Shown here one piece after another: positions 5,476 to 33,554 of a stretch of 64,000 bases of DNA. Each line of letters starts with the position of its first letter. Positions within the stretch are counted from its first letter, which is position 1. The translations under genes and the position numbers were made by a program. The stretch spans positions 3,576 to 67,575 of the forward strand of contig CAYMDO010000009.1 in NCBI GenBank assembly GCA_964389365.1, given 5' to 3'. The notes beneath the pieces are model-generated. The model was not told the origin of the DNA and searched no databases. It saw only the letters and a program-made list of their open reading frames with translations. Source of the DNA: an uncultured Syntrophomonadaceae bacterium (GTDB lineage: Bacteria; Bacillota; Dethiobacteria; DTU022).

Positions 5476-5515
5476 TTAGCAGAACCTCCTTCAATACCGG
5501 GTGCGGGCAGTTTTC

Positions 5516-6863: not shown

Positions 6864-6864
6864 A

Positions 6865-15230: not shown

Positions 15231-15251
15231 CCCGAATGGGTAAAATGAGAG

Positions 15252-16487: not shown

Positions 16488-16780
16488 TTCCTCCTCTATC
16501 CGAACTGCCTGCCAACAGAAAGAACAGGGGCGACTGAAGAAACGCATCTAGGTCGGCCTGCTTTACGGTTCCGGTACCCATAAGAGCGTCTCAGTCGGCA
16601 GCGCGCTGCGGCGGCCCGGGTATTCCGGTAACGAGGAAGATCTCTGCTTACGAATTATTTCCTTAATGAGCCACAAATAATAAAGATGCTAAAGCACACA
16701 TTTTGAGTTTTAACACCATTTTTTCATTTTTATTCCTAAAGACATGTCACATCCTTACAGCACAAAAAAAATCAAAAAAA

Positions 16781-16809
16781 TTGACAAATTAAATAGAATA
16801 TTATAGAAT
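16781..16809 (+). promoter_or_regulatory. sigma-A-type promoter TTGACA-17-TAGAAT with upstream A-tracts, driving the GntR/sugar operon
   Basis: TTGACA at 16781-16786, a 17-nt spacer, then TAGAAT at 16804-16809, about 45 nt before the GntR start. Confidence 0.45.
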
Positions 16810-16852
16810 ATAGCTTGTAATGACAGGATAACATAATGAAGGGATGTATTGA

Positions 16853-17680
16853 ATGGAAAGTAAAAATAGTAGCAGATATATCGACAAGAATAGTATTATT
16901 CCTTATTATCACCAGTTAAAAGAACAACTAAAATTTTATTTTGAAGAAAATAATTTAAATGAAGGCGATCAGATTCCCTCAGAAGCTGAACTTTGTCGGT
17001 CTTATGGTGTTAGTCGGACGGTAGTACGGCAGGCAATTACTGATCTGTTTAATGAAGGTTTGCTTTTCCGTCAGAAGGGAAAGGGTACTTTTATTGCAAG
17101 ACCAAAAATTATTGGCAGTCTGATGCAGAATTTGAATGGTTTTTATAAAGATATGATGGTTAAGGAGTTTAAAACAAGATCTGAGATCCTTGACTTTTCA
17201 ATAGTTGATGCACCTAAAAAGATCGCTAACAGGCTCCAGCGTGAAGTGGGAGAGAAATTATTTAAAATAGATCGACTCCGCTATGTCAACGATGAACCAA
17301 TTGTTTGTGTTATTTCTTACATCCCCTACAGTCTTTGCCCCGAACTTATCAATGAAGACCTCGCCAATCAGTCACTCTACGCAGTCATGGAAGAAAAGTT
17401 TAACTTAAAAATTGCCTCTAGTCGCCGGTCTATAGAGGCGGTAGGGGCGACAGAGGAAATTGCTGTTCTGATGGATATAGAATACTGCGCACCGGTATTT
17501 TTGCTAAAAAGCATTAGTTATCTAGATAACGGAATGCCGGTTGAATATTATGAAGCCAGGCACCGGGGCGATCGAATCGGCTTCGAGGTCGAGATAATAA
17601 ACCAAAAAAATTCCAATCACCATGATAGTGCCGATCTGAGTTTTCAGGTAATGAACCTATCTGATCATAAGCAAGTATAG
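16853..17680 (+). CDS. GntR-family transcriptional regulator (HutC/FarR subfamily with UTRA effector domain)
   Basis: N-terminal wHTH (LPSEAELCRSYGVSRTVVRQAI) plus a C-terminal UTRA-like domain. Confidence 0.85.
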   Translation: MESKNSSRYIDKNSIIPYYHQLKEQLKFYFEENNLNEGDQIPSEAELCRSYGVSRTVVRQAITDLFNEGLLFRQKGKGTFIARPKIIGSLMQNLNGFYKDMMVKEFKTRSEILDFSIVDAPKKIANRLQREVGEKLFKIDRLRYVNDEPIVCVISYIPYSLCPELINEDLANQSLYAVMEEKFNLKIASSRRSIEAVGATEEIAVLMDIEYCAPVFLLKSISYLDNGMPVEYYEARHRGDRIGFEVEIINQKNSNHHDSADLSFQVMNLSDHKQV

Positions 17681-17802
17681 AGGAAGCAACACTTTGCTGA
17701 AATCGCGAAGGGGGTGTTTGATGAATAATTGACAGGCAGGTAAGAGTTTGGGTACAAGGAAGTTTGTTAGGCAGCAAGAATTATAAAGAGGAGGAACATG
17801 GC

Positions 17803-18972
17803 GTGAACAGAAAGTTCAATATTTTAATGCTGATTTTTGTTGTTACGATATTTGGGCTTCTCATTATTGGCTGTGCACCGGATACCCCTGCAGAACCACC
17901 GGTTGACGAAGATGAGGCGGTTTTGGAAAAAATCGTTATCGGTTGGACTCCACCTGACATAACCGGAGTTTTTAAGACGGCAACCGAATACTTCGAGCTG
18001 GCTGCTGAAGATGCCGGTAAGTATGGCATAGAAGTCGAAGTGATATCACGTTCTCCGGCTACCCATGTTGCCTTTGCAGACCAGGTAGCCATTATCGAAG
18101 ATTATATCACTATGGGTGTCGATGTAATTGCTATTTCGCCCATTGAGGTGGAAGTAGTCAAGCCGGCGCTCCAGCAGGCTAACGCGGCGGGGATCCCCAT
18201 AATTATGGTCAACCTTTTAGAGCCAATTGCTGATGTGGATATCGCCTGCTATATCGGGTTCGACAACTTTGATGGCGCAGCCATCACAGCCTATTCGATG
18301 GTAGATTACTTCGGCGGACCTGGAGTCTTAGGTGAGGGCGAAAAAGTTGATGTAACGCCCGAAACTTATCTTGACCTGGCTTGGTGGGAAAGCATTTATG
18401 CTGATGCTGATCCTGCAGCGCTGAATCTTGAGGCTCGGGGAGCGATCATCGAAGGTGTGGCCGGAGGCTTTTTCTCCGTTACCCGTGTAGAAGGCTTCCG
18501 CTCAGTAATAGACAAGTTTCCAGGTATCGTTGAAGTTATGGAGCCCATTCCAGCTGACTGGAACAGGGAAAAGGGTATCGCAGCTGCGGAGGACATTTTG
18601 GCCGCCAACCCTAAAGGAACCCTGGATTGGATCTGGGCTGCCTCTAACGAAATGGGCATGGGAGCCAGGCTTGCCTGTGAAACAGCAGGCAGGACCGAAG
18701 TAGTTGTCTTTACAAATGATGTTACACCGGAATCAGTTCTTGAGTTTATCAATAAGGATCGCATAGTCGCAGAAACTACACACGGTTTTCCCGATTGGGG
18801 ATGGTTTGGAACCAAGTATGCTGTTATGTTGGCGCTCGGTTTGGATGTGCCGCAGTTTGAAGATATTCGGCCACGTACTGCTTACAAAGACAACAGCCAT
18901 ATGTTCTACCCAGAACCAGTTTTGCCACCTATTGATTGGGAAGAAATTCTAGTAAATGCAGGAGTGAAGTAA
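17803..18972 (+). CDS. sugar ABC transporter substrate-binding lipoprotein (PBP type I / CUT2-like)
   Basis: GTG start after AAGAGGAGG. Signal peptide plus lipobox LIIGCAP. Periplasmic-binding-protein fold. Confidence 0.8.
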   Translation: MNRKFNILMLIFVVTIFGLLIIGCAPDTPAEPPVDEDEAVLEKIVIGWTPPDITGVFKTATEYFELAAEDAGKYGIEVEVISRSPATHVAFADQVAIIEDYITMGVDVIAISPIEVEVVKPALQQANAAGIPIIMVNLLEPIADVDIACYIGFDNFDGAAITAYSMVDYFGGPGVLGEGEKVDVTPETYLDLAWWESIYADADPAALNLEARGAIIEGVAGGFFSVTRVEGFRSVIDKFPGIVEVMEPIPADWNREKGIAAAEDILAANPKGTLDWIWAASNEMGMGARLACETAGRTEVVVFTNDVTPESVLEFINKDRIVAETTHGFPDWGWFGTKYAVMLALGLDVPQFEDIRPRTAYKDNSHMFYPEPVLPPIDWEEILVNAGVK

Positions 18973-18981
18973 CCAGCGGTA

Positions 18982-19008
18982 ATAGGGGGGGGGGTAATGC
19001 CCCCCCTA
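18982..19008 (+). terminator. G10/C6 hairpin (intra-operon attenuator/terminator) between the SBP and ATPase genes
   Basis: ATAGGGGGGGGGGTAATGCCCCCCTAT inverted repeat immediately after the SBP stop. Confidence 0.45.
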
Positions 19009-19181
19009 TATACTACCTGCCTCTCAGCCTTCAGCTGAGTTTAGCAGCACATTAATATATGGCTAGCGATATTAAATTTCCAAACTTAATATGGCAATTA
19101 TAGCCAACAATGATGTTGTCTGGCATTGTGGTAAAAGTAAGCAGCTAACCTTTAGTATGTTCACGTAAAGGAGAGTCGATT

Positions 19182-20687
19182 ATGGCTCAACCACCGCTAC
19201 TCGAGCTAAAGAACTTAAATAAGAGCTACCCGGGCGTCCAAGCTTTGAAGGATGTAGATCTTGAGCTTAATTCCGGCGAAGTGCACTTTTTGCTGGGTGA
19301 AAATGGAGCCGGTAAATCTACCTTAATGAAAATTCTAAGCGGTTCGGTACAAAAAGATAGTGGCAAGATTTTGCTGGAAGGAATTCCTATCGAAATTAAT
19401 AGTCCGGCCGATTCGCGGCAACATAGGATTGCCATGGTTTACCAAGAGCTGAGTCTACTGCCGTCTCTAACCGTGGCAGAAAACATTTTTCTGGGAGAGC
19501 TTCCCCAAAAGGGCTGGAGTAAAATAATTGACTGGAAAAGAATAAACCGGGAAACATTGGCAGCGCTGGAAACTGTTGGTTTGCATATATTACCACAGAG
19601 ATTGGTTAAAGACCTTTCTGTTGGTGAGAAACAACTGGTAGAGATTGCCAAAGCAGTCTCGCGAAAAGCGAGGATCTTGCTGCTTGATGAACCGACCTCT
19701 GCGTTGTCAGGAGAAGAATCTGAAAAACTTTTCGCGTTAATAAAAGATTTAAAGGAAAAAGGTATTGCCATCCTCTATATCTCTCACCGTCTGGCTGAAG
19801 TGCCAACTATAGCCCAGCGGGTTACCGTTCTTCGCGATGGTGAGAAGGTGGGGTCTTTTCTTGTTGGCAATGTTGAAGAAAAAGATTTAATCAGAATGAT
19901 GGTAGGCCGGGAAATTGAAGAAAAATTTCCGAAAGAAAAAATAATAATTGGCAAGCCCTTGCTCGAGCTATTTAACCTTAACTTAAAAAACCGATTAAAG
20001 GATATAAATCTTACAGTGAACCAAGGCGAAGTAGTCGGTGTTTTCGGGTTAATGGGGGCAGGGCGGACCTCGCTGGCCAATGCCCTGTTTGGCATTGAAA
20101 AACCAGACAGTGGGACAATCAAGGTTAATGGCTCTGATGTCAGCATTAATAACCCCTGGGATGCAATCTGTGCTGGTTTCGGCTACATCACGGAAGATCG
20201 CCGTGGCAGTTTGGCCCCACGCATGAGTATAGCGGCTAATATCACTTTGCCCAATCTTAAATGCCTCTTATCTTGGGGCTTTTTGAGTTTGTTTAAAGAA
20301 AAGCTTTTGGTTCAAAACTATGTTGACGAATTGAAGATTGCCACTCCGAGCTTGCAGCAGCTCTGCGAGTGCCTAAGTGGGGGGAACCAGCAAAAGGTAG
20401 TACTGGCGCGTTGGATTTGCGCGAGCTCTAAGATTTTACTTCTGGATGAACCAACTAGAGGCATAGATGTTGGCTCAAAAGTTGAAGTGTACCGCTTAAT
20501 GGGGCAGTTGGCAAAAGAGTATGCGGCCATTTTGATGTTCAGCTCGGAGCTCCCTGAAGTAATGGCAGTCAGCGATCGCATTCTGGTAATGTGTGAAGGA
20601 AAAATTGTAGCTTCTTTCAATCAAAATGAGACTACCCCTGATGAAATCATGTTATACGCTACCGGTAGGAGGAAAAAGTGTGGATAA
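19182..20687 (+). CDS. sugar ABC transporter ATP-binding protein (duplicated NBD, RbsA/MglA/XylG type)
   Basis: Two Walker A motifs (GENGAGKST, GLMGAGRTS), two signature motifs (LSVGEKQ, LSGGNQQK) and two Walker B motifs. Confidence 0.9.
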   Translation: MAQPPLLELKNLNKSYPGVQALKDVDLELNSGEVHFLLGENGAGKSTLMKILSGSVQKDSGKILLEGIPIEINSPADSRQHRIAMVYQELSLLPSLTVAENIFLGELPQKGWSKIIDWKRINRETLAALETVGLHILPQRLVKDLSVGEKQLVEIAKAVSRKARILLLDEPTSALSGEESEKLFALIKDLKEKGIAILYISHRLAEVPTIAQRVTVLRDGEKVGSFLVGNVEEKDLIRMMVGREIEEKFPKEKIIIGKPLLELFNLNLKNRLKDINLTVNQGEVVGVFGLMGAGRTSLANALFGIEKPDSGTIKVNGSDVSINNPWDAICAGFGYITEDRRGSLAPRMSIAANITLPNLKCLLSWGFLSLFKEKLLVQNYVDELKIATPSLQQLCECLSGGNQQKVVLARWICASSKILLLDEPTRGIDVGSKVEVYRLMGQLAKEYAAILMFSSELPEVMAVSDRILVMCEGKIVASFNQNETTPDEIMLYATGRRKKCG

Positions 20688-21726
20688 AAACAAGCTATCT
20701 CAAGATTCAGTTTTGCAGGAAAAGATAAAAGTAAAACTTACCGCAACAGACTATTTACGAAAAGCTATAGCCATGAGCGGGCCAATTATAGCCCTGGCCA
20801 TGCTGATGACTTATTTTAGCCTAGCAACGCCTTACTTTGCCACAGGCGGAAATATAATTAATATCGCCCGTCAATCTTCCATAAACATTATGTTAGCTAC
20901 CGGTCAGAGCCTTGTTATTCTATCAGGCGGAATTGATCTGTCGGTTGGGGCGGTAATGGCTCTGGCCGCATCTGTTTCAACTGTTGCCATGACCTACTAT
21001 GGTTTTAATGTTTGGATTGGCATGTTTCTCAGTATAGCAGTAGGATCTTTCGCGGGATTCATCAACGGATTGGTTATAGCCAAAGGTAAGGTGCCGGATT
21101 TTATAGCTACTCTCGGCATGATGACTGTAGCCCGAGGTGTGGCCTTACTTGTAACCGGCGGCCTTCCTGTACCGTCCCATCGCATTGCCCACGAAATTAG
21201 AGCACATATCCCCGACCAATTATTATGGCTTGGAGGAGGCAAGCTTCTTGGTATACCAACCGCACTTCTGGTAGCAATTGGTATCGTCCTTCTTGGTTGG
21301 TTTATCACACGTTATACGAGACTGGGCCGTTCATTATTTGCTGTGGGCGGGAACAAAGAAGCGGCCCGAGTATCCGGGATAAACATTGATCGTACTAAAA
21401 TAGCTGTCTACACTATATCTGGAGCTTTTGCCGGGATTGCTGCACTGGTCTTAACAGGACGCATGAACTCGGCAAACGCACTAATGGGAGAAGGAGCAGA
21501 GCTGCAGTCGATTGCAGCTGTGGTTATCGGCGGTTCTAATCTATATGGTGGAGAAGGCGGTGTGGGAGGCACCCTGGTTGGAGCCCTTATCATGGGTGTC
21601 TTGAATAATGGTTTAAACCTGATCGATGTTTCTGCATTCTGGCAGAGAGTTATACTAGGTTCAGTGCTTATAATCGTTGTGATCTTTGATCAATGGCGCC
21701 GCCGTCGCCTTGCTGTAACCCACTAA
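20680..21726 (+). CDS. sugar ABC transporter permease (RbsC/branched-chain AA transport-permease fold)
   Basis: GTG start after AGGAGG, overlapping the ATPase stop. Multi-TM hydrophobic protein. Confidence 0.85.
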   Translation: MDKNKLSQDSVLQEKIKVKLTATDYLRKAIAMSGPIIALAMLMTYFSLATPYFATGGNIINIARQSSINIMLATGQSLVILSGGIDLSVGAVMALAASVSTVAMTYYGFNVWIGMFLSIAVGSFAGFINGLVIAKGKVPDFIATLGMMTVARGVALLVTGGLPVPSHRIAHEIRAHIPDQLLWLGGGKLLGIPTALLVAIGIVLLGWFITRYTRLGRSLFAVGGNKEAARVSGINIDRTKIAVYTISGAFAGIAALVLTGRMNSANALMGEGAELQSIAAVVIGGSNLYGGEGGVGGTLVGALIMGVLNNGLNLIDVSAFWQRVILGSVLIIVVIFDQWRRRRLAVTH

Positions 21727-21775
21727 TTAACAGCAGCATATTGTAACTAAGCTAAATTAATAGGGAGGTTCCGTT

Positions 21776-22537
21776 ATGAATTTTAGTGGCAAAGCAGTTA
21801 TTGTTACCGGTAGTGGAGAAGGTATTGGCCGTGCGGCTGCGATTGCTTTTGCCCAAAAAGGAGCCCGTGTAGCGATAGCTGACGCTGCACCTCTGAAGGG
21901 AAAAGAAACTGTTGCTCTAATAAAAAGCAGCATTGGCGAGGCTATATATTTTAAAGTTGACATATCCGATACTGGCAGTGTTAGGCAAATGGTCCGTGAT
22001 GTAAAAAAAACTTTCGGCACTATTGATATCCTTGTCAATAATGCCGGCATACATGCCCGGGGAGATGTAGTGGAAACTTCTGAAGATACCTGGGATAAGA
22101 TTATGGCCGTGAACCTGAAAGGAGTTTACCTTTGTTTGCATCATGTGGTTCCGGTAATGATTGAAAAAGGCAGTGGAACAATAGTTAACGTTGCTTCGGA
22201 AGCGGGAATGATTGGCATAAAAGGACAGGTGGCCTATAACGCATCCAAGGCAGGTGTAATTTCTCTTACACAAAGCACGGCCGTTGATTTTGCTGCCAGA
22301 GGGATCAGAGTAAATGCAGTTTCGCCTGGAACAACAGAAACCCCTTTGGTCTCGAAAATATTGGATGAAGCAGACGACCCGGAAGAAATCCGCAAGAGAC
22401 TTGAAGAATGTCGTCCTTTAAACAGGCTTGGAAAAATGGATGAAATTGCTGCTGCGATATTGGCAATGGCATCAGATGAATTAGGTTATGCCACAGGGTC
22501 TGTTCTGACAATTGATGGAGGTTATACCGCTCAGTAA
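21776..22537 (+). CDS. SDR-family NAD(P)-dependent oxidoreductase
   Basis: TGSGEGIG Rossmann motif, NNAG, YNASKAG catalytic tetrad. Confidence 0.85.
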   Translation: MNFSGKAVIVTGSGEGIGRAAAIAFAQKGARVAIADAAPLKGKETVALIKSSIGEAIYFKVDISDTGSVRQMVRDVKKTFGTIDILVNNAGIHARGDVVETSEDTWDKIMAVNLKGVYLCLHHVVPVMIEKGSGTIVNVASEAGMIGIKGQVAYNASKAGVISLTQSTAVDFAARGIRVNAVSPGTTETPLVSKILDEADDPEEIRKRLEECRPLNRLGKMDEIAAAILAMASDELGYATGSVLTIDGGYTAQ

Positions 22538-22573
22538 TCCGAGAAATAATCGGTTTGCTTCTCGCTGGAGGGA

Positions 22574-23452
22574 TTGAGTATGTTCAACTATGCTGTAAGT
22601 AACTGGATCTTTGGTGGAGAAGAACTGGAGACGACCTGCATGCGCCTGCATCGTTTTGGGTATACCGCTATAGAATTAGTAGGCGAGCCTGAACGATACA
22701 AACCGGATCTGGTAAAAGAGCTAACCTTTAAATATAACTTAAAAGTCTCCTCTGTTTTAAGCTGGTGTCTTTGGCCTTTGGAAGACCGGGATCTGGCACA
22801 TACAAATCATGAATATCGCGCAAAAGCAATTGCTTATATTATGCGCAATGTGGATCTGGCTGCTGAAGTTGGTGCACCGGTTGTGATTGTAATTCCCGCA
22901 CCCTCAGGCAGACCGGCTCCACACCGGAATCCGACCTCAGCGGCAGACTGGCAAAAGGCAGCGAAGGAAGAATGGGAGCTGGCGGTTATTTCTGTCCGAG
23001 AAACTGCTATTTACGCACAGGCGAAAAATATATCAATAGCTGTCGAGCCGATCAATCGGTTCGAGACTTTTCTTGTAAACCGAGTAGACCAAGGATTAAA
23101 TTTTATTAAAGAAGTAGGTTTGGAGAATGTTAAACTTCACCTGGATACTTTTCATATGAATATTGAAGATTCGCATATGGGCGAAGCCATATTGAAAGCC
23201 GGATCACTTTTAACAAGCATGCACCTGTCTGATAGCAACAGGTGTGCTATTGGGCGGGGGCATATTAATTTCAAAGAAATTTTAAAAGCTTTGGCTGATA
23301 TAAAATTTCAGGGATCATTAATCCTGGAGCCTCTTCCTCTTCATCCCAATCCATTCGTTGCTGCCGACCTTGAGGAATATCGTTCAGCATGGGATAGCGA
23401 TATTGAAAGCAGCATCAATGTGCTTAGGAAATTGGAATCGTGCTGCGGATGA
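22574..23452 (+). CDS. sugar-phosphate isomerase/epimerase (xylose isomerase-like TIM barrel; ketose 3-epimerase / IolE-IolI-like)
   Basis: AP_endonuc_2-type motifs (VEPINRFETFLVN, HLDTFHMNIE, LSDSNR..GRGHI). Confidence 0.8.
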   Translation: MSMFNYAVSNWIFGGEELETTCMRLHRFGYTAIELVGEPERYKPDLVKELTFKYNLKVSSVLSWCLWPLEDRDLAHTNHEYRAKAIAYIMRNVDLAAEVGAPVVIVIPAPSGRPAPHRNPTSAADWQKAAKEEWELAVISVRETAIYAQAKNISIAVEPINRFETFLVNRVDQGLNFIKEVGLENVKLHLDTFHMNIEDSHMGEAILKAGSLLTSMHLSDSNRCAIGRGHINFKEILKALADIKFQGSLILEPLPLHPNPFVAADLEEYRSAWDSDIESSINVLRKLESCCG

Positions 23453-23475
23453 AATGAACGATTAGGAGGAATTTA

Positions 23476-25296: not shown

Positions 25297-25553
25297 TTGA
25301 TATTTCGGTAAAATATACCGGTCTGATCAGGAGTATAGCCGTCAGCAGCGAAGAGAAATGGACGGTTAAAGATGAGGCCACCTTGGAAGAACTGCTGGTG
25401 GCAGTTGCATCAAAATATCACGTAAAGTTAGATGACAGTGCTAAGTTTATTGTTGTCTATAACGACCATGGTATCAGCTTTGATCAGTGGTCCGAACAGG
25501 TTCTCCAAAATAACGACAAGGTGCTTATCCTGCCATCAATTTCGGGAGGTTAA
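25293..25553 (+). CDS. MoaD/ThiS-family small beta-grasp protein with C-terminal Gly-Gly (AOR-associated)
   Basis: 86 aa ending ...PSISGG. Overlaps the AOR stop by 4 bp. Confidence 0.6.
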   Translation: MIDISVKYTGLIRSIAVSSEEKWTVKDEATLEELLVAVASKYHVKLDDSAKFIVVYNDHGISFDQWSEQVLQNNDKVLILPSISGG

Positions 25554-25555
25554 CA

Positions 25556-26560
25556 ATGGTTAAAAACTCAGTACTGATTACCTCTCGCTCTTTCGCCCAG
25601 TTGGACAATGGGCCGTTAATTTATCTGCAGGAAGCAGGCTGCCTCATAGAGCGAAATAAGAAACAGTTGCACTACAGCGAAGAAGAAATGGCAGAAGCCA
25701 TATCAGGCATTGATGGGCTGCTTGTAGGCCTTGATCCTGTTACAGAAAAAGTACTGGCAGCCGCGCCGAGGCTTAAGGTGGTATCCAAGTATGGTGCCGG
25801 ATTAGACAACATCGACCTGGATGCGGCCACACATTACGGAGTTGTTGTTACCAATACCCCCGGAGCAAATACCGAAGCGGTAGCCGACCTTACATATGGA
25901 TTGATGTTAGCGGTCGGCAGGCGTATTGTCGAAGCGCACGAATCAGTCAGGGCAGGATCATGGGAGTCATTTTTAGGGGTAGATTTATGGGGTAAAACCC
26001 TGGGCATTATTGGCACGGGCCGTATCGGCAGGGCAATAGCTTATAGAGCCAGGGGTTTTAACATGCAGATTCTTTCCTACGACTGTAATCCTGATCACGG
26101 TTGGGCTGAAAACTGTGGTGCCAGCTATGTTAGCCTGATAGACTTAATGCGGCAAAGCGATTATGTAACGGTGCACCTGCCCTTAACGGAAGAAACCAGG
26201 GGCTTAATTGGAAGTGACCTGTTAAAGCTGATGAAACCATCAGCCATACTGGTTAATACTTCCAGGGGCGGAATCGTAGATGAAACAGCTCTGGTAGATA
26301 TACTTAGACAGGATAAAATATTCGGAGCTGCTTTGGATGTTTATAGTATAGAGCCGCTTGAAAACAAAGATATCTTATCTTCACCGAGGCTTATAACTAC
26401 CCCCCACATCAGTGCACACAGCAGCGGCTCCCTTCTCAAAATGGGTATGATGGCAGCAGACAACCTGGTCCGGGTACTACAAAATCAGCGGCCAGAGCAT
26501 GTGGCAAATCCAGCAGTATACAAAACAATCAAGGAAGGTGACCGTGGTGAAGGCAAATGA
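25556..26560 (+). CDS. D-isomer-specific 2-hydroxyacid dehydrogenase (glycerate/hydroxypyruvate/phosphoglycerate dehydrogenase-like)
   Basis: GIIGTGRIG NAD motif and the catalytic R/E/H arrangement. Confidence 0.85.
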   Translation: MVKNSVLITSRSFAQLDNGPLIYLQEAGCLIERNKKQLHYSEEEMAEAISGIDGLLVGLDPVTEKVLAAAPRLKVVSKYGAGLDNIDLDAATHYGVVVTNTPGANTEAVADLTYGLMLAVGRRIVEAHESVRAGSWESFLGVDLWGKTLGIIGTGRIGRAIAYRARGFNMQILSYDCNPDHGWAENCGASYVSLIDLMRQSDYVTVHLPLTEETRGLIGSDLLKLMKPSAILVNTSRGGIVDETALVDILRQDKIFGAALDVYSIEPLENKDILSSPRLITTPHISAHSSGSLLKMGMMAADNLVRVLQNQRPEHVANPAVYKTIKEGDRGEGK

Positions 26561-27566
26561 TCTGGTCGGAGTCGGTGTAATCGGAACCGGGCGGGCCGGT
26601 ATGGTGCATATAGCAAACTTTGCTGAAAATGTGCCTCGCGCCCGTTTGGTTGCAGTATGCGATCTTAACGAAAAAAGTGTGCAGGAAGCTGCCCTTAAAT
26701 GGAATGCAGATTCATACACAAGCCCTGAAGAATTCTTAAAACACCCTTCACTTGATGCTGTGGTTATCGCCACGCCAACCTTTGCGCATGCAGCACTGGT
26801 TATCGCGGCTGCAGAAGCGAAAAAAGCTATTCTTTGCGAGAAGCCCTTAACTATCACAGAAGAAGAAGCAGGGGATATGGATAAGGCGGTAAAGCAAAAC
26901 GGGGTACCCTTTGTGATGGGTTTCATGCGCCGTTTTGATCAAAGTTTTCTTCGTGCCCGGGAGATGGTTGAAAGAGGTGACATAGGCGAACCGTTGATGG
27001 TTAAGTCAACAGGAAAGGGACCGGGTCTGCCTCCCTCTTGGAACCTCGATATTGAAAAAAGTAATGGCATGTTGGCCGAAGTAAACAGTCATGACTTTGA
27101 TTGTGTGCGTTTTTTAACCGGCGAAGAATACAAATGGGTGTTTGCCACAGCTCTTAACAATAAATGCCCCGATTATAAGGCGGAGTACCCCCAATTTTAC
27201 GATACTGCTATTGTCACTTTCGGCATGTCCGGTAAAATTATTGGCACTATCGACGGGGCCTGCCCGGCCGACTATGGCTATGATGCCAGGGTCGAAATTC
27301 AGGGTGCTGATGGTGTTCTTTTCATCGGTGATCTGGCCAAAAAAGGGATTGTGATTGGCCGCAAGGGCAAAGGTGTGGCAGAAGAGATAGTTGATAGCTG
27401 GCGCTCGCTTTTTCGTGAGGCCTATCTGGCTGAAGATCGGTGCCTTGTCGATTGTGTGTTAAAGGGTATAGAATCGCCTTCGACCCTAACAGATGGTTGG
27501 CAGGCGTTAAAGGCGGTTCGTGCTGCAAACCGTTCGATCCGCAGCGGGCAGGTAGTAGAAGTATGA
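26547..27566 (+). CDS. Gfo/Idh/MocA-family oxidoreductase (inositol 2-dehydrogenase-like)
   Basis: GTG start after AAGGAAGGTGA. GVIGTGRAG N-terminal Rossmann fold. EKP motif. Confidence 0.8.
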   Translation: MKANDLVGVGVIGTGRAGMVHIANFAENVPRARLVAVCDLNEKSVQEAALKWNADSYTSPEEFLKHPSLDAVVIATPTFAHAALVIAAAEAKKAILCEKPLTITEEEAGDMDKAVKQNGVPFVMGFMRRFDQSFLRAREMVERGDIGEPLMVKSTGKGPGLPPSWNLDIEKSNGMLAEVNSHDFDCVRFLTGEEYKWVFATALNNKCPDYKAEYPQFYDTAIVTFGMSGKIIGTIDGACPADYGYDARVEIQGADGVLFIGDLAKKGIVIGRKGKGVAEEIVDSWRSLFREAYLAEDRCLVDCVLKGIESPSTLTDGWQALKAVRAANRSIRSGQVVEV

Positions 27567-28645
27567 ACGCAGCAGCAGAAAAAATGACAGCAGCAGTATA
27601 CCGTGACGGGACAATTGAAATTAAAAAAATCCCACGTCCACACCCGGGAGAAAACGAATTGGTCATAAAGGTCGAAGCTGCAGCTATATGTGCTACTGAC
27701 CTGAAGATATGGAAAAGGGGGCACCGCAATATTGCCGCCGGTAGTGCGGCTGTTCTGGGGCATGAAGTGGTTGGCAAGGTGTTTGAGGTTGGCTCAAAGA
27801 TCGACAAAACCTGGTTGGGGAAAAGAGTAGTAATTCCACCCAATGTGGGTTGCGGTGCATGCCCGGCCTGTGAGGTGGGGTGGGATAGTTATTGTCCCGA
27901 TTACAAAGCCTATGGCGTCGGGCTGCCAGGTAGTTTTGCCGAATACATGTTGGTCGGGGCTATGTCAGCCGGATCGGGGCAATTGATCTCTGTTGCGGAT
28001 CATATCCCTACAAAAGTTGCTGTGCTGGCCGAAGCTGCATCCTGCTGCTACCGCGGTTTGCTTGATTGTGACTTGCAGCCTGAAGAAAAAGTATTGGTCT
28101 TGGGAGCAGGCCCAATGGGCATTCTTAGTATCATAGCCGCCGAAGCAATGGGTGCGTCAACTATTATAAGTGCTGATCTCCTTGAAGAACGACGAAATAC
28201 AAGCAAAAAGTTTGGCGCCGTATATACCCTGAATCCGGCAGTTGATCACTTTGAAGAAGCGGTGAAAGAAGTAAGCGGTGGCTGGGGTGTTGATGTGGTT
28301 ATGGTCACTGCTCCATTCGCAGGAGCACAACGCCAGGGCATCATGGCCGCTGCAGTGGGTGGTCGGATTAATCTTTTTGCCGGGCTTTCTCCGGACGATC
28401 GATTTGATGATTTCCCCTCAAACCTCGTTCACTACCGTGGCTTGAAAGTTTTGGGCAGTACGGGGGCCACTTCGCAAGTGATGCAGGCAGTGGTAAATTT
28501 GATGGCCGAAGGGCACCTGGCGTTGCTGCAACAGGCGGTTACGGCAGTTTATGCATTGGAAGATATGGTTAAGGCATTAGAAATGGCCGGAAGTGGTAGG
28601 GAAATTAAGGTTATGGTAGTGCCTGACAGTAAGATGATAGTTTAG
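27563..28645 (+). CDS. Zn-dependent medium-chain alcohol/polyol dehydrogenase (sorbitol DH / TDH-like)
   Basis: ATG overlaps the upstream stop (ATGA). GHE catalytic-Zn motif, structural-Zn Cys cluster CGACPACEVGWDSYC, GAGPMG NAD motif. Confidence 0.8.
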   Translation: MNAAAEKMTAAVYRDGTIEIKKIPRPHPGENELVIKVEAAAICATDLKIWKRGHRNIAAGSAAVLGHEVVGKVFEVGSKIDKTWLGKRVVIPPNVGCGACPACEVGWDSYCPDYKAYGVGLPGSFAEYMLVGAMSAGSGQLISVADHIPTKVAVLAEAASCCYRGLLDCDLQPEEKVLVLGAGPMGILSIIAAEAMGASTIISADLLEERRNTSKKFGAVYTLNPAVDHFEEAVKEVSGGWGVDVVMVTAPFAGAQRQGIMAAAVGGRINLFAGLSPDDRFDDFPSNLVHYRGLKVLGSTGATSQVMQAVVNLMAEGHLALLQQAVTAVYALEDMVKALEMAGSGREIKVMVVPDSKMIV

Positions 28646-28679
28646 CGAATTATTTCCTGATTACATTAGGAGAGGATCA

Positions 28680-30230
28680 ATGATGGGCGAGACTTATTTG
28701 CTTGGGATTGACCTGGGAACAATGGGAACTAAGGCAGCTCTATACAATCTGGAAGGAAAAGCCCTAGCAGAAGCTTACGAGGAATCTATACTGCGCTACC
28801 CGCGAATAGGCTGGGTGGAACAGGATTTTGAAGAGATTTATAGTTCGGCAGTTAATTGTATTAAAGAAGTTTTAGAAAAAAGCGGCATCGAAAGTGGTGC
28901 CGTGGCGGCTCTTGCATTCAGCAGTCAAATGTCAGGTATAGGGATGATTGATCGGGATTGGGCGCCCGCAGCCCATTATGACAGCTGGCTCGATACTCGC
29001 TGTGAATCAGCTTTCCCCCTCATGGAGCCTTACTGCCATGATTTTACAGCAAACAGTGGTTGCCCACCTACCTATGCTCATGCAGCAAAAATTATCTGGT
29101 GGAAGAATAACCAGCCGGAAGTATTTAAAAATGCAGCACGATTTGTTGTTCCGCTCGCCTATGTTGCCGGCAAGATGGCCGGATTGAAGGCCGATGAAGC
29201 CTATATTGATCTCACTTGCCTGCATTTTTCAGGATTCAGCAATACCGGAGAGCAGAAGTGGTCACAGGAGTTGCTTAACAAGTTTGAAATACCCGAAGAG
29301 AAAATGCCACGAATTATATCTCCGACAGAGGTTATCGGAAAAGTCAACCGTGAAGCGGCCCGTGCAACCGGTTTAAAAGAAGGCACACCTATTGCTGCCG
29401 GTGCAGGGGATCAAGCGGCAGCATCTCTTGGCGCAGGAGTGGTCGAGCCGGGTGATGTTTTTGACAGTGCCGGAACCGCTTCTGTTTTTTCAGTCTGTGT
29501 TAATAGCTTTTTGCCTGACGTCCGGAATAAAGTTGTTCTGGCCACTCATGGTGTCATACCCGGTACTTACTATGCCTTGTCATTTATTAATGGAGGCGGC
29601 CTAAATTTAAGATGGTTCCGTGATACTTTTGGTCTCCAGGAGAAGAATGAGGCTGCGGCGGCCAAAAAAGAAGTTTACCAGATCTTTGATCAAATGGCTG
29701 CTCAATCTCCGGCAGGTTCGGGCGGCACAATATTTATTCCCCATTTGCAGGGCAGAGTAGTTCCGCCGGACGCTTCATTAAGAGGGCTCTGGGTTGGTTT
29801 TACCTGGTCTCATGACCGTGGCCACCTTTTCCGGGCGATGATGGAAGGGGTCGCTTATGAGTATGCATACTATCTGCAGATAGAAAAAGAGCTTCACCCG
29901 GATCTCGAGTGCCGGGAGGTAAGGGCGATCGGTGGTGGTGCATCAAGCGATCTATGGAATCAAATTAAAAGTGATGTTTTAGACATACCATATTGTCGAA
30001 TTAACCGATCGGAAGTTGGCACCTGGGGCTGTGCCATGATTGCCGGCAAAGCAGTAGGTATTTTTAACGACTTAAAGACAATTTCCAAGGAAGCCACACA
30101 GATTAGCCATCGCCTTGAACCGCGCTCTCATTACACCGGATTTTATCGACCCTATGTTGACATTTACAGGCAGATAATTGAAGGGTATGCCGATATATTT
30201 GATGGCTTAAGTGAGCTGCCTTTGGAGTAA
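28680..30230 (+). CDS. FGGY-family carbohydrate kinase (xylulokinase/gluconokinase-like)
   Basis: N-terminal LLGIDLGTMGTKAALY. FGGY_N and FGGY_C domains. Confidence 0.8.
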   Translation: MMGETYLLGIDLGTMGTKAALYNLEGKALAEAYEESILRYPRIGWVEQDFEEIYSSAVNCIKEVLEKSGIESGAVAALAFSSQMSGIGMIDRDWAPAAHYDSWLDTRCESAFPLMEPYCHDFTANSGCPPTYAHAAKIIWWKNNQPEVFKNAARFVVPLAYVAGKMAGLKADEAYIDLTCLHFSGFSNTGEQKWSQELLNKFEIPEEKMPRIISPTEVIGKVNREAARATGLKEGTPIAAGAGDQAAASLGAGVVEPGDVFDSAGTASVFSVCVNSFLPDVRNKVVLATHGVIPGTYYALSFINGGGLNLRWFRDTFGLQEKNEAAAAKKEVYQIFDQMAAQSPAGSGGTIFIPHLQGRVVPPDASLRGLWVGFTWSHDRGHLFRAMMEGVAYEYAYYLQIEKELHPDLECREVRAIGGGASSDLWNQIKSDVLDIPYCRINRSEVGTWGCAMIAGKAVGIFNDLKTISKEATQISHRLEPRSHYTGFYRPYVDIYRQIIEGYADIFDGLSELPLE

Positions 30231-30274
30231 TTAGTAACAAATTAAGCAGCTAAAAAAGAAGAAAGGGGTTACAA

Positions 30275-30928
30275 ATGCTTGCCAAGGTAAAAATATTTAA
30301 CCGTATTTTTAATGCCGGTATTATTGCTGTTATCAGGGCTGATTCAATGGAACAGGCGCTGGCGACAACAGAAGCGGTACGAAATGGCGGCGTAGATATT
30401 ATTGAAATCACCCTGACTGTTCCAGGTGCTTTGGGTGTAATTGAAGAGTTAACAAAGACATACCGCAACAATGAAATACTGATCGGTGCCGGAACGGTAC
30501 TGGATTCCGAAACTGCCCGCATCTCTCTATTGGCAGGAGCTGAATTTGTTGTCAGCCCCTTTCTGAATCACGATGTGCTAAGACTTTGCAATCGCTACCA
30601 GAAAATTTGCATGCCTGGTTGTATGACTGTAACAGAGATTGTTTCTGCTCTTGAAGCCGGGGCGGACTTAATTAAACTCTTTCCCGGAAGTTTTTTTGAC
30701 CCCTCAATAATTAAGACCTTGAAAGGACCTTTGCCCCAAGCTGAATTTGTTCCTACCGGGGGAGTTAACCTCGACAATGTTCAGGATTGGATTTATAACG
30801 GATGTATAGCAGTTGGGGTTGGTGGAGAACTGACCAAAGGGGCTGCTGAAGGTGACTACCGAAGAGTTACAGAAACCGCCCGCCAATTTGTCGAAAAAAT
30901 ACGGACAGTACGTCCTTTACAAGCGTAG
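30275..30928 (+). CDS. eda: KDPG/KHG-family aldolase (2-dehydro-3-deoxy-phosphogluconate / 4-hydroxy-2-oxoglutarate aldolase)
   Basis: 217 aa. IIAVIR, EITLT, GAGTVL, KLFPG, PTGGV motifs. Confidence 0.8.
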   Translation: MLAKVKIFNRIFNAGIIAVIRADSMEQALATTEAVRNGGVDIIEITLTVPGALGVIEELTKTYRNNEILIGAGTVLDSETARISLLAGAEFVVSPFLNHDVLRLCNRYQKICMPGCMTVTEIVSALEAGADLIKLFPGSFFDPSIIKTLKGPLPQAEFVPTGGVNLDNVQDWIYNGCIAVGVGGELTKGAAEGDYRRVTETARQFVEKIRTVRPLQA

Positions 30929-30952
30929 TATAGCCAGGAGGCTTGTGAGACG

Positions 30953-31825
30953 ATGAAATATGCTGTTAGCAGTTGGATCTATGGAGGCGAGAGCTTAGAG
31001 CATGTTTTTGACCGGTTAGCTAGGTATGGATACGATGCTGTTGAATTGGAAGGCGAACCGGATAAGTACGCAGTAAAAGAAGTTCTAGAGCTAAGTCGCC
31101 GGTACTGCCTCTCAATATCCGGAATTGCCGGGATGTATCCATGGCCAACCGAGGAGAGGGATCTGGCTTCACCAGATCCAGAGGTAAGGAAAAGAGCAGT
31201 GCAATATTTGCATTCCTGCATAGAATTTGCTCATGATCTGGCTGCACCGTTGGTAATTGTGGTGCCATCTGCGGTGGGAAAAACCATGCCTTTACCGATC
31301 TTTAATGGAGAAAAGGATATATCAGCATGGGATGAAACAGTTGAGAGGGAGTGGGCATATGCGCAGGATTCAGTTGGTAAATGTTGTGAGGCTGCCCGTG
31401 AAAAAGGAATAATTTTGGCAGTTGAGCCGATTAACCGCTATGAAACCTTCCTTATCAATACCTGCCGCCAAGGCTTGCAGTTTATATCATCATTCGGCGA
31501 AAAAACAGTAAGACTTCATCTTGATACATTTCATATGAATATTGAGGAAATAAACCAGAAACAGGCCATCCTAGAAGCAGGAGAACTTCTGGCCAATCTT
31601 CACGTGGCCGACAGTAATCGACAGGCGGTTGGGAGAGGGCATATTGATTTTGCCGGAGTAGTCAGCAGCCTTAAAGAGATAAATTATGCAGGAGTACTTT
31701 CTTTGGAACCACTGCCGCCAGTTCCTAATCCTTATGTGGCCATGAAACTGGATCGCTACAAAGCAATGCGAGACGAGATTGCCCGTGAAAGTATTGAAAC
31801 GTTGAAGATAATAGATGCACAATAG
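30953..31825 (+). CDS. sugar-phosphate isomerase/epimerase, paralog of 22574-23452
   Basis: Shares VEPINRYETFLIN and LHLDTFHMNIE with the upstream paralog (~45% identity by eye). Confidence 0.8.
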   Translation: MKYAVSSWIYGGESLEHVFDRLARYGYDAVELEGEPDKYAVKEVLELSRRYCLSISGIAGMYPWPTEERDLASPDPEVRKRAVQYLHSCIEFAHDLAAPLVIVVPSAVGKTMPLPIFNGEKDISAWDETVEREWAYAQDSVGKCCEAAREKGIILAVEPINRYETFLINTCRQGLQFISSFGEKTVRLHLDTFHMNIEEINQKQAILEAGELLANLHVADSNRQAVGRGHIDFAGVVSSLKEINYAGVLSLEPLPPVPNPYVAMKLDRYKAMRDEIARESIETLKIIDAQ

Positions 31826-31879
31826 ATTACGCAACAGCCGATTATTAAGGGATTAATTAGGCCGAGAGGAGGTTTTGCC

Positions 31880-32449
31880 ATGAAAGAAAACAAAATTATG
31901 GACCCTTTTTATGTGGAGATTAGCTGTGAAAATGGAAGCGTATCGTCGCCGGCAAGGTTAATCAGACGTCGGTTAAGTGATTTAGCCGGTCTGTTTTATG
32001 ATCAGGATGCTTATAATCGTGCTTTGGCAGACGATGATCCAATTCTCTATGAAGTATATGAGGTCAGGGTGCCGGAAGAAGAAGGCCATCTTTTATCATG
32101 CACAACAGTGATCTATCCGGGCAAAGTTGGAAAAGAGTATTACTTTACCAAAGGGCATTTTCATGTTCTGGAAAACAGGGCTGAAATATATACATGTTTG
32201 CGCGGGCAAGGCTACCTTTTGATGACTACTAGGTCTGGTAATAGCCATAGTATAGCTATGAAGCCTGGAGTTTCTGCCTATATACCACCATACTGGTCGC
32301 ATCGTACTTTAAACTGTGGAGAAGAGCCCTTTATTTTTTATGGTGTATGGCCGGGAGATGCCGGTCATGATTATGAAAGTATAGTTGAGCAAGAGTTTCC
32401 TCTTCGTGTTTTAGAAGAAAATGGTAAACCGGTTATCAAAACTTCATAA
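31880..32449 (+). CDS. cupin-type glucose-6-phosphate isomerase (archaeal-type cPGI)
   Basis: Collinear with P. furiosus cPGI: TTVIYPGKVGKEYYFTKGHFH, YIPPYWSHRTLNCGEEPFIF, PGDAGHDYES. Confidence 0.85.
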   Translation: MKENKIMDPFYVEISCENGSVSSPARLIRRRLSDLAGLFYDQDAYNRALADDDPILYEVYEVRVPEEEGHLLSCTTVIYPGKVGKEYYFTKGHFHVLENRAEIYTCLRGQGYLLMTTRSGNSHSIAMKPGVSAYIPPYWSHRTLNCGEEPFIFYGVWPGDAGHDYESIVEQEFPLRVLEENGKPVIKTS

Positions 32450-32531
32450 CCGTTGATGTTGATATTTAAGCAATTTAATACCTATTAATGGGAGTATATA
32501 TTAGGGCTTCCTGAATGAAAGCCTAATTAAA

Positions 32532-33178
32532 ATGGTTATCGACGTCAGAAACGTTGGCCCGGCCCCGCTGCTTGCTGCCCTAGGCAGGGAACCGGGCATT
32601 GTCGAGAGCATCAACACCCGCCTTCCTGCCACCTGCGATTTGGCCGAAGAGCTGATTGTAAAAGCTGTCCGTAAAGATAACTGGTTTAACCTTGGCCAGC
32701 CGGCAGAAGGCAAAGATAATGCTAACTACCGGCTAACCGAATACTTAGAGCAGCTAGATGATAAAAGTTATCGTTTCCTGGTCGTTTACTCTTCCACCCT
32801 TGATCAACGCAAACTAAAAAACCGGACAACCGGGTCAAGGATGAGCAAAAAGGGCTGGAAAAAGAGATCGCCACTCTTGGAGCCAAGCAGTTCGTTTGCC
32901 AGCCTGATGCCGAGGCAGCCCTTGACTGCTTTATTATAGAACACAAAGGCGGCTTGCTTAAGATAGCTGGCACGGTAGCGTTAGTCGAGATCCCTGAAAT
33001 AAAGAAAAGTTTTGAACCAACGGCCAAGAAGGCGCTCGATCTGTTTGCCGCGATTAAGGCTGTTTGGCTAAATGACGGCACATCCATCGAGCGTCAGTTG
33101 CCAAAGCGTTACCGGGAATTGACCATGGTGCTCAAGATGGCCGGTTTTGATTTTGATATCTTTACTTCACCTCCGTAG
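32532..33178 (+). mobile_element. transposase remnant (IS4/IS1634-family-like, frameshifted and truncated); tentative
   Basis: ORFs 32532-32939 and 32954-33178 join through a frameshift near 32820 (RFLVVYSSTLDQRKLK then EQKGLEKEIATLGAKQFVCQPDAEAALDCFIIEHKGG). There is no intact DDE domain. Confidence 0.35.
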
Positions 33179-33362
33179 TGGTAGTTAATATAAATAGGAC
33201 AAAGAAAACAGTTGTTGGTAAGTGCAAGGGTGCGGAAAATCAGATATTAACAGTTCTTGCATTCGCCCAAATATCCTCCCCAAAAAATGTACCAAACTAA
33301 TATCAAAAGGGGTTCCGGGCAAATTTACCATGAAGTAAATGCTCCAAAACCCCTTATTTTAC

Positions 33363-33440
33363 TGGTGCGCCCGGCAGGATTTGAACCTGCGGCCTCCTGA
33401 TTCGTAGTCAGTTACTCTATCCGGACTGAGCTACGGGCGC
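33363..33440 (-). tRNA. tRNA-Arg (anticodon ACG)
   Basis: Reverse complement GCGCCCGTAGCTCAGTCCGGATAGAGT..CTACGAA..GGTTCAAATCCTGCCGGGCGCACCA. Cloverleaf with CCA encoded. Confidence 0.85.
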
Positions 33441-33443: not shown

Positions 33444-33538
33444 TGGCGGAGAGAGAGGGATTTGAACCCTCGAAGCAGGCTTTTACCCACTTAATCGCTT
33501 AGCAGGCGACCGCCTTCGACCTCTCGGCCATCTCTCCG
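33444..33538 (-). tRNA. tRNA-Ser (anticodon GCU), long variable arm
   Basis: Reverse complement GGAGAGATGGCCGAGAGGTCGAAGGCG..CTGCTAA..GGTTCAAATCCCTCTCTCTCCGCCA. Confidence 0.85.
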
Positions 33539-33554
33539 TATACCTGTATCTTAT

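Follow-up and report, generated by a model that had tools for sequence, protein, structure and literature searches.

Positions 16751–32503 of a 64,000-nt stretch from an uncultured Syntrophomonadaceae bacterium (metagenome-assembled contig CAYMDO010000009.1; the full stretch is termed the window) very probably represent a horizontally acquired catabolic operon cassette, composed of a regulator, a promoter and 14 structural genes and carried in a ~16.8-kb insertion at the variable 3′ site of tRNA-Arg(ACG). Horizontal acquisition, which a first-pass annotation had already proposed, is upheld by the foreign composition of this 15-gene block, by copies with matching boundaries in three genomic contexts that are unrelated to one another and include a plasmid-like one, by the low divergence of the copies relative to core genes, by the absence of the block from an empty-site-like relative that has both flanks (L157) and by integrase elements at the same tRNA gene in relatives. 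The loci used for comparison are labeled L001, L002 and so on.

Composition and distribution of the block

The block is compositionally foreign. The GC fraction per kb is 0.52–0.58 at 1–16 kb, 0.42–0.50 at 16–33 kb and 0.49–0.53 beyond. The GC content at third codon positions (GC3) of the 15 block genes ranges from 0.33 to 0.48 (mean 0.41), compared with 0.54–0.67 (mean 0.61) in the left flank and 0.53–0.63 up to 60.5 kb (mean 0.575) in the right flank (Mann–Whitney U = 0, p = 9.5e-8 for block versus flanks). In a leave-one-out codon-usage log-likelihood comparison, all block genes favor the block model and all flank genes between 468 and 62056 favor the host model; the only exceptions in the flanks, dnaN (62053–63162) and a dnaA fragment (63424–63885), lie at the origin end. 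The tetranucleotide correlation with the right flank drops from 0.84–0.95 outside the block to 0.60–0.80 inside it. The AT-richer composition from ~16.6 kb described by the first-pass annotation is thus borne out by GC3, codon usage and tetranucleotides, and in none of these measures is the block uniform with its flanks.

The low GC3 accompanies the block in every context, with values of 0.31–0.45 in the window, in L082/L156 and in the relative CAYTER alike, regardless of the flanks. More distant homologous clusters follow their surroundings: the cluster in L083 has a GC3 of 0.42–0.51 and the core genes of the same metagenome-assembled genome (MAG; locus L006) one of 0.43–0.47, and the cluster in L084 has a GC3 of ~0.73, equal to that of its flanks. 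Because these clusters match the GC3 of their host or flanks, low GC is not intrinsic to the genes, and because the L083 cluster matches the composition of its host, the donor was probably a lower-GC member of the same family. The same agreement with host composition argues against an ancestral, vertically inherited block, in which low GC would reflect a gene-specific constraint and the contexts would differ by chromosomal rearrangement. This explanation, which we consider very unlikely, draws on the wide occurrence of the cluster core in the family (L083, L084/L085), where the identities of the aldehyde:ferredoxin oxidoreductase (AOR; 70–75%) lie near those of serS/argS (73–75%).

Copies of the block were identified through homologues of its AOR (L082) and of its cupin and AOR (L154/L156 and L151/L155). 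L082 positions 971–16720 correspond to the entire block without interruption (89.4% nucleotide identity), and nothing else is shared with the window. L154 and L156, which belong to a 40.8-kb contig (SRR22387906_93615), are 98.6% identical to L082, including the left flank, and display the order Toprim-DnaB_C primase-helicase, block, XRE, HTH_17 (excisionase-like), ParA, DNA methylase and helicase. Aligned along its entire length, the L156 primase-helicase shares 40% identity with its counterpart on a 14-kb Bacillus cereus plasmid, whose annotation reads DnaB-like helicase C-terminal domain protein; identically annotated genes of 6.7–8.1-kb Streptococcus thermophilus plasmids also match. Since its phage matches are weaker and partial, the vehicle is plasmid-like, which is difficult to reconcile with vertical inheritance. 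IMG/VR scans with the AOR and with the L156 primase-helicase yielded no matches, and a PLSDB search with the AOR gave a best match of 39% identity and no similar plasmid-borne cluster.

The third context is chromosomal. In CAYTER, the closest relative of the window organism, the block (window 16769–32448) is located on contig 3 (L151/L155) between 3HCDH-LOG-DUF4126 and Dak2/FakA-DegV-AhpC, and the serS-tRNA locus of the same MAG is on contig 4. Neither the CAYTER copy nor the plasmid-like copies are found beside a tRNA gene. Just left of the CAYTER block and outside the shared homology, a 97-aa open reading frame (ORF; L155 2406–2699, − strand, GC3 0.30) has no Pfam match and may be a residue of the DNA on which the block came in.

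Presence in the closest relative would suit vertical inheritance, but the divergence of the two copies does not. Between the window and CAYTER, eight core genes (3362 codons) are 75.3% identical at the nucleotide level, 80.6% at the amino acid level and 49.6% at third codon positions, whereas the 15 block genes are 82.7, 86.9 and 64.6% identical, respectively. The corresponding block values between the window and the plasmid-like copy are 89.2, 91.6 and 78.2%. Because third-position identity in the block (65–78%) is far above that of the core (50%), the common ancestor of the block copies is much younger than that of the genomes that carry them. Moreover, the block genes do not have a single nearest relative. 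In the three transporter genes (17803–21726), CAYTER and the plasmid-like copy share 87–91% of third positions and the window shares 60–68% with both. In the other twelve genes, the window shares 78–90% with the plasmid-like copy and CAYTER only 58–69%. This difference in nearest relative indicates that the block is a mosaic generated by recombination between block variants, and such exchange between copies is again at odds with vertical descent.

The tRNA-Arg site and the edges of the insertion

In a protein search with serS, the matches were MAGs of Syntrophomonadaceae/Bacillota, with CAYTER010000004 (L002; 89% amino acid identity) as the closest, followed by L003, L004 and L005 (79–81% identity), which bear soda-lake-type isolate names. 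Window positions 33.4–46.5 kb are colinear with the serS loci of these relatives, and the colinearity breaks off exactly at tRNA-Arg. The three tRNA genes that the first-pass annotation had placed next to the island are all on the − strand, with the 3′ end of tRNA-Arg pointing toward the block, and the same tRNA-Arg/Ser/Ser trio follows serS in L003, L005, L006, L007 and L009. Host DNA starts again at the intrinsic terminator of the tRNA operon (~33300–33355).

A near-empty version of the site is observed in L157, which derives from the same data set as L082 (SRR22388156) and was found by a protein search with the diaminopropionate ammonia-lyase (DAP-AL) of the left flank. L157 positions 1–5631 match window 10879–16510 (identities of 77.8% at the nucleotide level, 74–83% at the amino acid level and 53–60% at third codon positions), and its last 44 bp (7596–7639) match window 33346–33389 (97.7%), which comprises the tRNA-Arg 3′ end and 17 bp of the terminator. 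The two flanks are therefore ~2 kb apart in L157, with 1.9 kb between the matching segments and without the block, an arrangement that also speaks against vertical inheritance. Besides a terminator and a sigma/RsgI-like anti-sigma pair, the 1.9-kb interval contains a decayed copy of tRNA-Arg in direct orientation. The decayed copy (5676–5790) extends over ~25 nt of the tRNA-Ser(GCT) 3′ end and aligns with a score of 65 (0/1000 shuffles), although ARAGORN makes no call. It lies 1.9 kb from the genuine tRNA-Arg, brackets the sigma/anti-sigma pair and represents an att-type scar that an earlier integration left at this hot spot. The interval absent from L157 spans ~16511–33300 (~16.8 kb) and stops ~60 bp, or one terminator, from the 3′ end of tRNA-Arg(ACG). 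A metagenome scan with the left-flank gene gave a best match of 70% identity and no empty site.

The tRNA-Arg site is an insertion hot spot, as seen from its varied cargo and from tyrosine integrases directly beside the tRNA gene in two relatives. L003 carries a tyrosine integrase 72 bp from tRNA-Arg, followed by a type I restriction–modification system (11724–17580, GC3 0.24–0.40); no att repeat was observed for this island within the available 9.6 kb. L009 carries a tyrosine integrase, an ImmA/IrrE peptidase and an XRE repressor (2888–5576), and L005 carries an encapsulated ferritin and an encapsulin (12163–13322). In L007, an unknown gene, an ECF sigma factor, a DNA alkylation repair protein and more genes up to tadA occupy the site. 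Comparison of the serS/tRNA neighborhoods, which the first-pass annotation had suggested, thus reveals one near-empty site (L157) and other cargo elsewhere. The block is not conserved at this position across relatives: it is absent beside tRNA-Arg in L003, L005, L007, L009 and L157 and is located elsewhere in CAYTER.

The transferable block measures 15.75 kb; it begins shortly upstream of the gntR promoter and ends shortly after the final stop codon. This near-consensus sigma-70 promoter (TTGACA-17-TAGAAT, 16781–16809, + strand) is present in all block copies. Homology among the copies starts 10–30 bp upstream of the promoter and stops 0–55 bp past the cupin stop codon. To the left, a junction segment found in the window only separates the block from DAP-AL, and only its first positions (16488–16510) are common to L157. 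The GC-rich left boundary that the first-pass annotation had placed at 16.49–16.7 kb is present, although it is confined to 16488–16640 (58.8% GC); no source for it, which that annotation had also found unclear, emerged from the searches. The junction segments displayed no similarity to 159 comparison loci or PLSDB in blastn and tblastx searches. At the left junction, neither an Rfam gathering-threshold scan of the whole window nor a permissive scan of 16300–17000 detected an RNA family, folding showed no excess RNA structure (z +0.8 and −0.2), and there was no significant tRNA remnant. Two weak tRNA matches in 16488–16750 (p 0.02–0.06) were rejected, since one of them is post-stop sequence common to L157. 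The DAP-AL terminator seen in L157 is missing from the window.

To the right of the block, the frameshifted transposase fragment reported by the first-pass annotation is a real IS1634-family remnant. Its frameshift-repaired 215-aa translation matches annotated IS1634 transposases (tblastn E 2e-12, ~29% identity, residues 27–153). The remnant is truncated and needs a frame change near 32816–32864, with at least one frameshift. With ~215 frameshifted codons and an NCBIfam IS1634 score of 12.7 bits (cut-off 100), it is derived from the family and is not a functional member. No terminal repeats were identified, and no second copy occurs in the window or the comparison loci. The fragment is thus a dead neighbor of the block outside the shared segment, and IS1634 is not found beside the other block copies. 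The ~16-kb island proposed at first is real, but its shared segment excludes the transposase remnant in which it had been thought to end.

Several observations weigh against the proposed acquisition at the tRNA site. No integrase domain was detected among the 15 block genes, the junction ORFs or the IS fragment, consistent with the earlier remark that no integrase survives, and the block contains no recombinase or transfer gene. No att-type repeat was observed: window 1–33300 contains no exact tRNA-Arg/Ser k-mer of at least 12 nt, and the best local alignment of the tRNA-Arg/Ser genes to this region scores 24 against a shuffled null of 24.1 ± 2.2. No piece of a plasmid-like backbone is present in the window. 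The divergence argument would be partly weaker if the L156 host were much closer kin of the window organism than CAYTER is. Since the CAYTER copy is also compositionally foreign, acquisition could have preceded the split of the two lineages and been followed by relocation. Finally, the window derives from a metagenome assembly, and the only independent identical contig (L001) lies wholly within the block, short of both junctions.

The L001 contig and the proximity of both junctions to repeat-prone features would also fit an assembly or binning chimera, in which a foreign block was mis-joined at repeats (IS, tRNA). However, such a chimera would require two independent mis-joins exactly between loci that are adjacent in L157. 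In addition, the junction DNA (263 bp and ~800 bp) matches no other block context, and the window block is a distinct allele that is 89% identical to the nearest copy. We consider a chimera extremely unlikely.

We infer an insertion mechanism and a route of entry, since the window itself contains no integrase, att repeat or plasmid-like backbone. A larger integrative or plasmid-like element with the tRNA site as its target may have brought in the block, and the backbone, integrase and att repeat of this element would later have been deleted, possibly with the aid of an IS1634 element. The IS1634 remnant occupies the tRNA-proximal position that is held by integrases in L003 and L009. The claim of integration at a tRNA locus accordingly stands for the position, whereas neither an att repeat nor an integrase attests to the mechanism. 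It is conceivable, though on balance doubtful, that the block was acquired by IS1634 transposition or co-integration, or by illegitimate or homology-facilitated recombination, and that the tRNA gene is incidental. The IS1634 remnant directly abuts the block, the att repeat and integrase are missing from the window, the block is not beside a tRNA gene in CAYTER or the plasmid-like element, and its edges run from promoter to terminator without terminal repeats. A composite transposon would nevertheless call for two copies of the same IS bracketing the cargo, and the window has a single remnant, on the right side; the left junction bears no resemblance to it and contains nothing IS-like, and the other block contexts lack the IS. 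Furthermore, tyrosine integrases use the site in two relatives, and L157 keeps an att-type tRNA duplication exactly there.

The cassette inserted at tRNA-Arg resembles tRNA-associated genomic islands and degenerate integrative elements in its foreign composition, its location at a tRNA 3′ end, its cargo operon with a regulator of its own, the adjoining IS debris, its sporadic occurrence among relatives and the use of the same tRNA gene by integrase elements in relatives. It differs from them in that the window lacks an integrase, att direct repeats and transfer or replication genes and in that the unit shared between genomes is only a promoter-to-terminator operon. As a genomic island, the block is ordinary and of a well-known kind, and its value is that of an unusually well documented worked example. 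The same 15.75-kb operon is seen in three settings (carried by a plasmid-like replicon, at a chromosomal site away from tRNA genes and at a tRNA hot spot after loss of all mobility genes), together with an empty-site-like comparator and evidence of recombination between copies.

Gene content and a possible pathway

Exactly 15 genes, all on the + strand, fill positions 16853–32449 (Table 1), in agreement with the co-directional and tightly packed arrangement noted in the first-pass annotation. Four junctions overlap (−8, −4, −14 and −4 bp), and the other gaps measure 2–209 bp. The starts of the transporter genes follow those called for their homologues in L155/L156. Every one of the 15 genes is intact. 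Identity between the window and the plasmid-like copy is 95% at first and second codon positions, far above the 78% at third positions, which points to purifying selection on the block genes.

Table 1. Features of the block, its junctions and the adjoining host DNA (window coordinates)
Feature	Position	Strand	Basis
Diaminopropionate ammonia-lyase (DAP-AL), host left-flank gene	15252–16487	+	NCBIfam TIGR03528, 591 bits, above cut-off
Left junction DNA, found in window only	16488–16750		GC-rich 16488–16640, AT-rich 16641–16750
Transferable block, one colinear segment	16751–32503	+	blastn, junction alignments, low GC3 in every context
GntR/UTRA (HutC-type) transcriptional regulator	16853–17680	+	Pfam GntR and UTRA
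RbsB-like binding protein, CUT2-type sugar ABC transporter	17803–18972	+	Pfam Peripla_BP_4
Double ABC ATPase, CUT2-type transporter	19182–20687	+	Pfam ABC_tran (two domains)
Permease, CUT2-type transporter	20680–21726	+	Pfam BPD_transp_2
SDR oxidoreductase	21776–22537	+	Pfam adh_short_C2
Xylose-isomerase-like TIM-barrel epimerase/isomerase 1	22580–23452	+	Pfam AP_endonuc_2; IolO-like 149 bits (cut-off 300)
Aldehyde:ferredoxin oxidoreductase (AOR), single-subunit "archaeal-type" branch	23476–25296	+	Pfam AFOR_N/AFOR_C
MoaD/ThiS-like 86-aa protein	25293–25553	+	Pfam ThiS; NCBIfam MoaD-family matches below cut-off
D-2-hydroxyacid dehydrogenase	25556–26560	+	Pfam; NCBIfam glyoxylate reductase/PGDH-like 272–287 bits, below cut-offs
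Gfo/Idh/MocA dehydrogenase, IolG-like	26547–27566	+	Pfam; NCBIfam IolG 270 bits (cut-off 355)
Zn-dependent dehydrogenase, IolM-like	27563–28645	+	Pfam; NCBIfam IolM 181 bits (cut-off 450)
FGGY sugar kinase	28680–30230	+	Pfam; XylB-like 269 bits (cut-off 380)
KDPG/KHG aldolase	30275–30928	+	Pfam; NCBIfam PRK06552 291 bits (cut-off 238)
TIM-barrel epimerase 2	30953–31825	+	Pfam; IolO-like 164 bits (cut-off 300)
Cupin-type phosphoglucose-isomerase-like protein	31880–32449	+	Pfam PF06560, 100.5 bits (cut-off 20.7)
IS1634-family transposase remnant, ~215 codons, GC3 0.57 (host-like)	32532–33178	+	ORFs 32532–32939 and 32954–33178
tRNA-operon intrinsic terminator	33300–33355	−	Hairpin and U-run, −27.6 kcal/mol, z −4.0, 0/200 shuffles
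tRNA-Arg(ACG)	33363–33440	−	ARAGORN and Rfam
tRNA-Ser(GCT)	33444–33537	−	ARAGORN and Rfam
tRNA-Ser(TGA)	33554–33640	−	ARAGORN and Rfam
serS, first gene of conserved core flank	33703–34980	−	Pfam; synteny with L002–L007

The AOR-containing cargo is the sole element of the block with some novelty potential. The block AOR matches AFOR_N (224 bits) and AFOR_C (383 bits) above their thresholds. Its best solved relative is the Pyrococcus furiosus AOR (1aor, E 3e-112), followed by the PDB entries 9g7j, 9mqx and 8c0z. It is clearly farther from FOR, WOR5 and a benzoyl-CoA reductase subunit, and it barely matches the archaeal GAPOR model. In the alignment to 1aor, the [4Fe-4S] cysteine ligands Cys-x2-Cys-x3-Cys...Cys (CFRCPVAC and later LGIC), the glutamate of PEYE, the histidine of ACH near the metal and the pterin motifs are kept. 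The MoaD-like gene overlaps the AOR stop codon by 4 bp and adjoins the AOR gene in every relative, Moorella among them. Such MoaD-like genes of AOR operons have been described as putative tungsten-cofactor maturation factors (PMC6365974). No AorA/AorC-type subunit genes lie beside the block AOR, which fits the single-subunit AOR branch of that study.

P. furiosus AOR was first proposed to oxidize glyceraldehyde in a non-phosphorylated glycolysis (Mukund & Adams 1991, as listed in PMC2063504). The block AOR resembles this single-subunit tungsten enzyme in its full-length AFOR_N/AFOR_C architecture, its best PDB match and its conserved [4Fe-4S] and pterin residues. Unlike the P. furiosus-type enzyme, it belongs to a bacterial sugar-type operon with which it is co-inherited, a MoaD-like gene invariably accompanies it, and some relatives of the window AOR are fused to a cupin isomerase. 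One such natural fusion (P0044; 811 aa) combines PF07883 and PF06560 with PF02730 and PF01314 and is 56% identical to the window AOR. This cupin/glucose-6-phosphate isomerase (GPI)–AOR fusion suggests that the cupin encoded by the last block gene and the AOR are functionally coupled and may act on connected steps. The block cupin is 49% identical to a UniRef entry named glucose-6-phosphate isomerase of P. furiosus.

The IolG-, IolM- and IolO-like members of the block invite comparison with the Thermotoga maritima myo-inositol pathway, which consists of IolG, IolM, IolN and IolO and an ABC transporter (Rodionova et al. 2013, Environ Microbiol 15:2254, as listed in PMC3750489). Similar to that pathway, the block clusters an IolG-like, an IolM-like and two IolO-like enzymes with a sugar ABC transporter. 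However, these enzymes all score below the respective cut-offs (Table 1), and the AOR, MoaD-like protein, 2-hydroxyacid dehydrogenase, FGGY kinase, KDPG aldolase and cupin isomerase of the block go beyond that pathway. Judged by these scores, the block is not the Thermotoga inositol pathway. Among the matches listed for 13 block proteins (all but the ABC ATPase and permease), with the SDR oxidoreductase represented by the best 25 of 233 families, no NCBIfam match is named IolN.

Another counterpart is found in Moorella thermoacetica (L160 161–11674, MIIF01000015, around P0021), where the cluster is chromosomal and next to groES/groEL. Its order is ABC ATPase, permease, FGGY, Gfo/Idh/MocA, AOR, an 84-aa gene, 2-hydroxyacid dehydrogenase, a Ureidogly_lyase-fold protein, Zn dehydrogenase, cupin-GPI and a second FGGY. 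The Moorella cluster is similar to the block in its operon-like array and in the shared CUT2 ABC transporter, FGGY kinase, IolG-like protein, AOR (62% identical), small gene, 2-hydroxyacid and Zn dehydrogenases and cupin-GPI. It differs in lacking the KDPG aldolase, both TIM-barrel enzymes and the SDR oxidoreductase and in containing the Ureidogly_lyase-fold protein and the second FGGY kinase. L083, L084/L085 and M. thermoacetica thus share a core set composed of the ABC transporter, FGGY kinase, IolG-like protein, AOR, small gene, 2-hydroxyacid dehydrogenase, Zn dehydrogenase and cupin. No published functional assignment of the Moorella cluster was found, and a literature search for AOR-containing inositol or sugar gene clusters found no functional study and no substrate linked to such a cluster. 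M. thermoacetica isolates use myo-inositol and several sugars (PMC11328732).

Tentatively, the block may encode an uncharacterized ferredoxin-linked route of strict anaerobes for the breakdown of a sugar, cyclitol or polyol that spreads as a promoter-to-terminator cassette. In such a route, the GntR/UTRA repressor would control the CUT2 ABC uptake of a monosaccharide, cyclitol or polyol. The substrate would be converted by NAD(P)-linked dehydrogenases (the SDR, IolG-like, IolM-like and 2-hydroxyacid dehydrogenases) and by the two IolO-like TIM-barrel enzymes, and the FGGY kinase would phosphorylate a pathway intermediate. The cupin isomerase would interconvert aldose and ketose forms, and the KDPG-type aldolase would then cleave the product. 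The AOR, matured with the help of the MoaD-like protein, would oxidize a pathway aldehyde to the acid and pass the electrons to ferredoxin, as would be apt for a hydrogen-producing anaerobe. On this proposal, which is drawn from enzyme families, the single-subunit tungsten AOR and its dedicated MoaD-like partner would form an integral pathway step. The AOR would act on a sugar-derived aldehyde from the cupin isomerase or the aldolase and replace an NAD(P)-dependent dehydrogenase, with electrons delivered via ferredoxin to hydrogen. Plasmid-like elements would carry the module between related soda-lake-type Bacillota, and its copies would recombine with one another.

Two results count against the proposed route. 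Every inositol-pathway NCBIfam model scored below its curated cut-off, and NCBIfam scans of 13 block proteins detected no ring-cleaving hydrolase and no classical sugar-acid dehydratase. The pathway reconstruction is speculative for these reasons. Carbohydrate utilization, as proposed in the first-pass annotation, holds at the level of enzyme families, and the block includes an unusual AOR. The wider interest of the cargo is that a conserved, apparently uncharacterized gene set couples a tungsten-type AOR to sugar/inositol-type enzymes in anaerobic Bacillota. Because a homologous set occurs in the cultivable M. thermoacetica, a role of bacterial AOR in carbohydrate catabolism is open to experiment.

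Flanking regions

The left-flank DAP-AL gene (GC3 0.55) encodes a protein that is 83% identical to its L157 counterpart and is the last gene of a ygeW/ygfK-type purine-fermentation cluster (1930–16487). Members of this cluster include an OTCase-like carbamoyltransferase, an M20 peptidase, two amidohydrolases, two xanthine-dehydrogenase-family Mo enzymes with an FAD subunit, a YgfK-like Fe-S protein and DAP-AL. The GC3 of the cluster (0.61) is slightly above that of the right flank (0.575; p 0.036), and no synteny with the serS loci of relatives was observed, with the exception of L157.

The right flank contains core genes, including argS, a Germane-domain protein gene, a WalRK-like pair, UDG, ddl, EF-G, leuC, ilvB, ilvD, a T-box-controlled ilvE, gyrB, recF, dnaN and dnaA. 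The T-box leader (53350–53578, − strand; 108.5 bits, above the gathering score) is upstream of a class IV aminotransferase gene (ilvE-like, 52421–53296), which is followed by ilvD, an ilvB-like TPP enzyme gene and leuC. The replication-origin region (58305–64000) encodes gyrB, a DciA-domain protein, recF, dnaN and the 3′ part of dnaA, all on the − strand. A second island at 60–64 kb was considered and rejected, the low GC at 62–64 kb corresponding to this dnaA-dnaN-recF-gyrB region. The block is ~30 kb from the replication origin. With the origin region at the window end, the orientation of the 15 genes implies that they would be transcribed head-on to replication.

The MAG labels of some comparison loci are at odds with their content. 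L006 and L083 (DATIKA01) are labeled Candidatus Limnocylindrales, and L009 is labeled Desulfovibrionaceae. The serS/argS loci of the L006/L083 MAG and of L009 are 70–75% identical to the window Bacillota genes and share their synteny, which suggests that these contigs are mis-binned or mislabeled.

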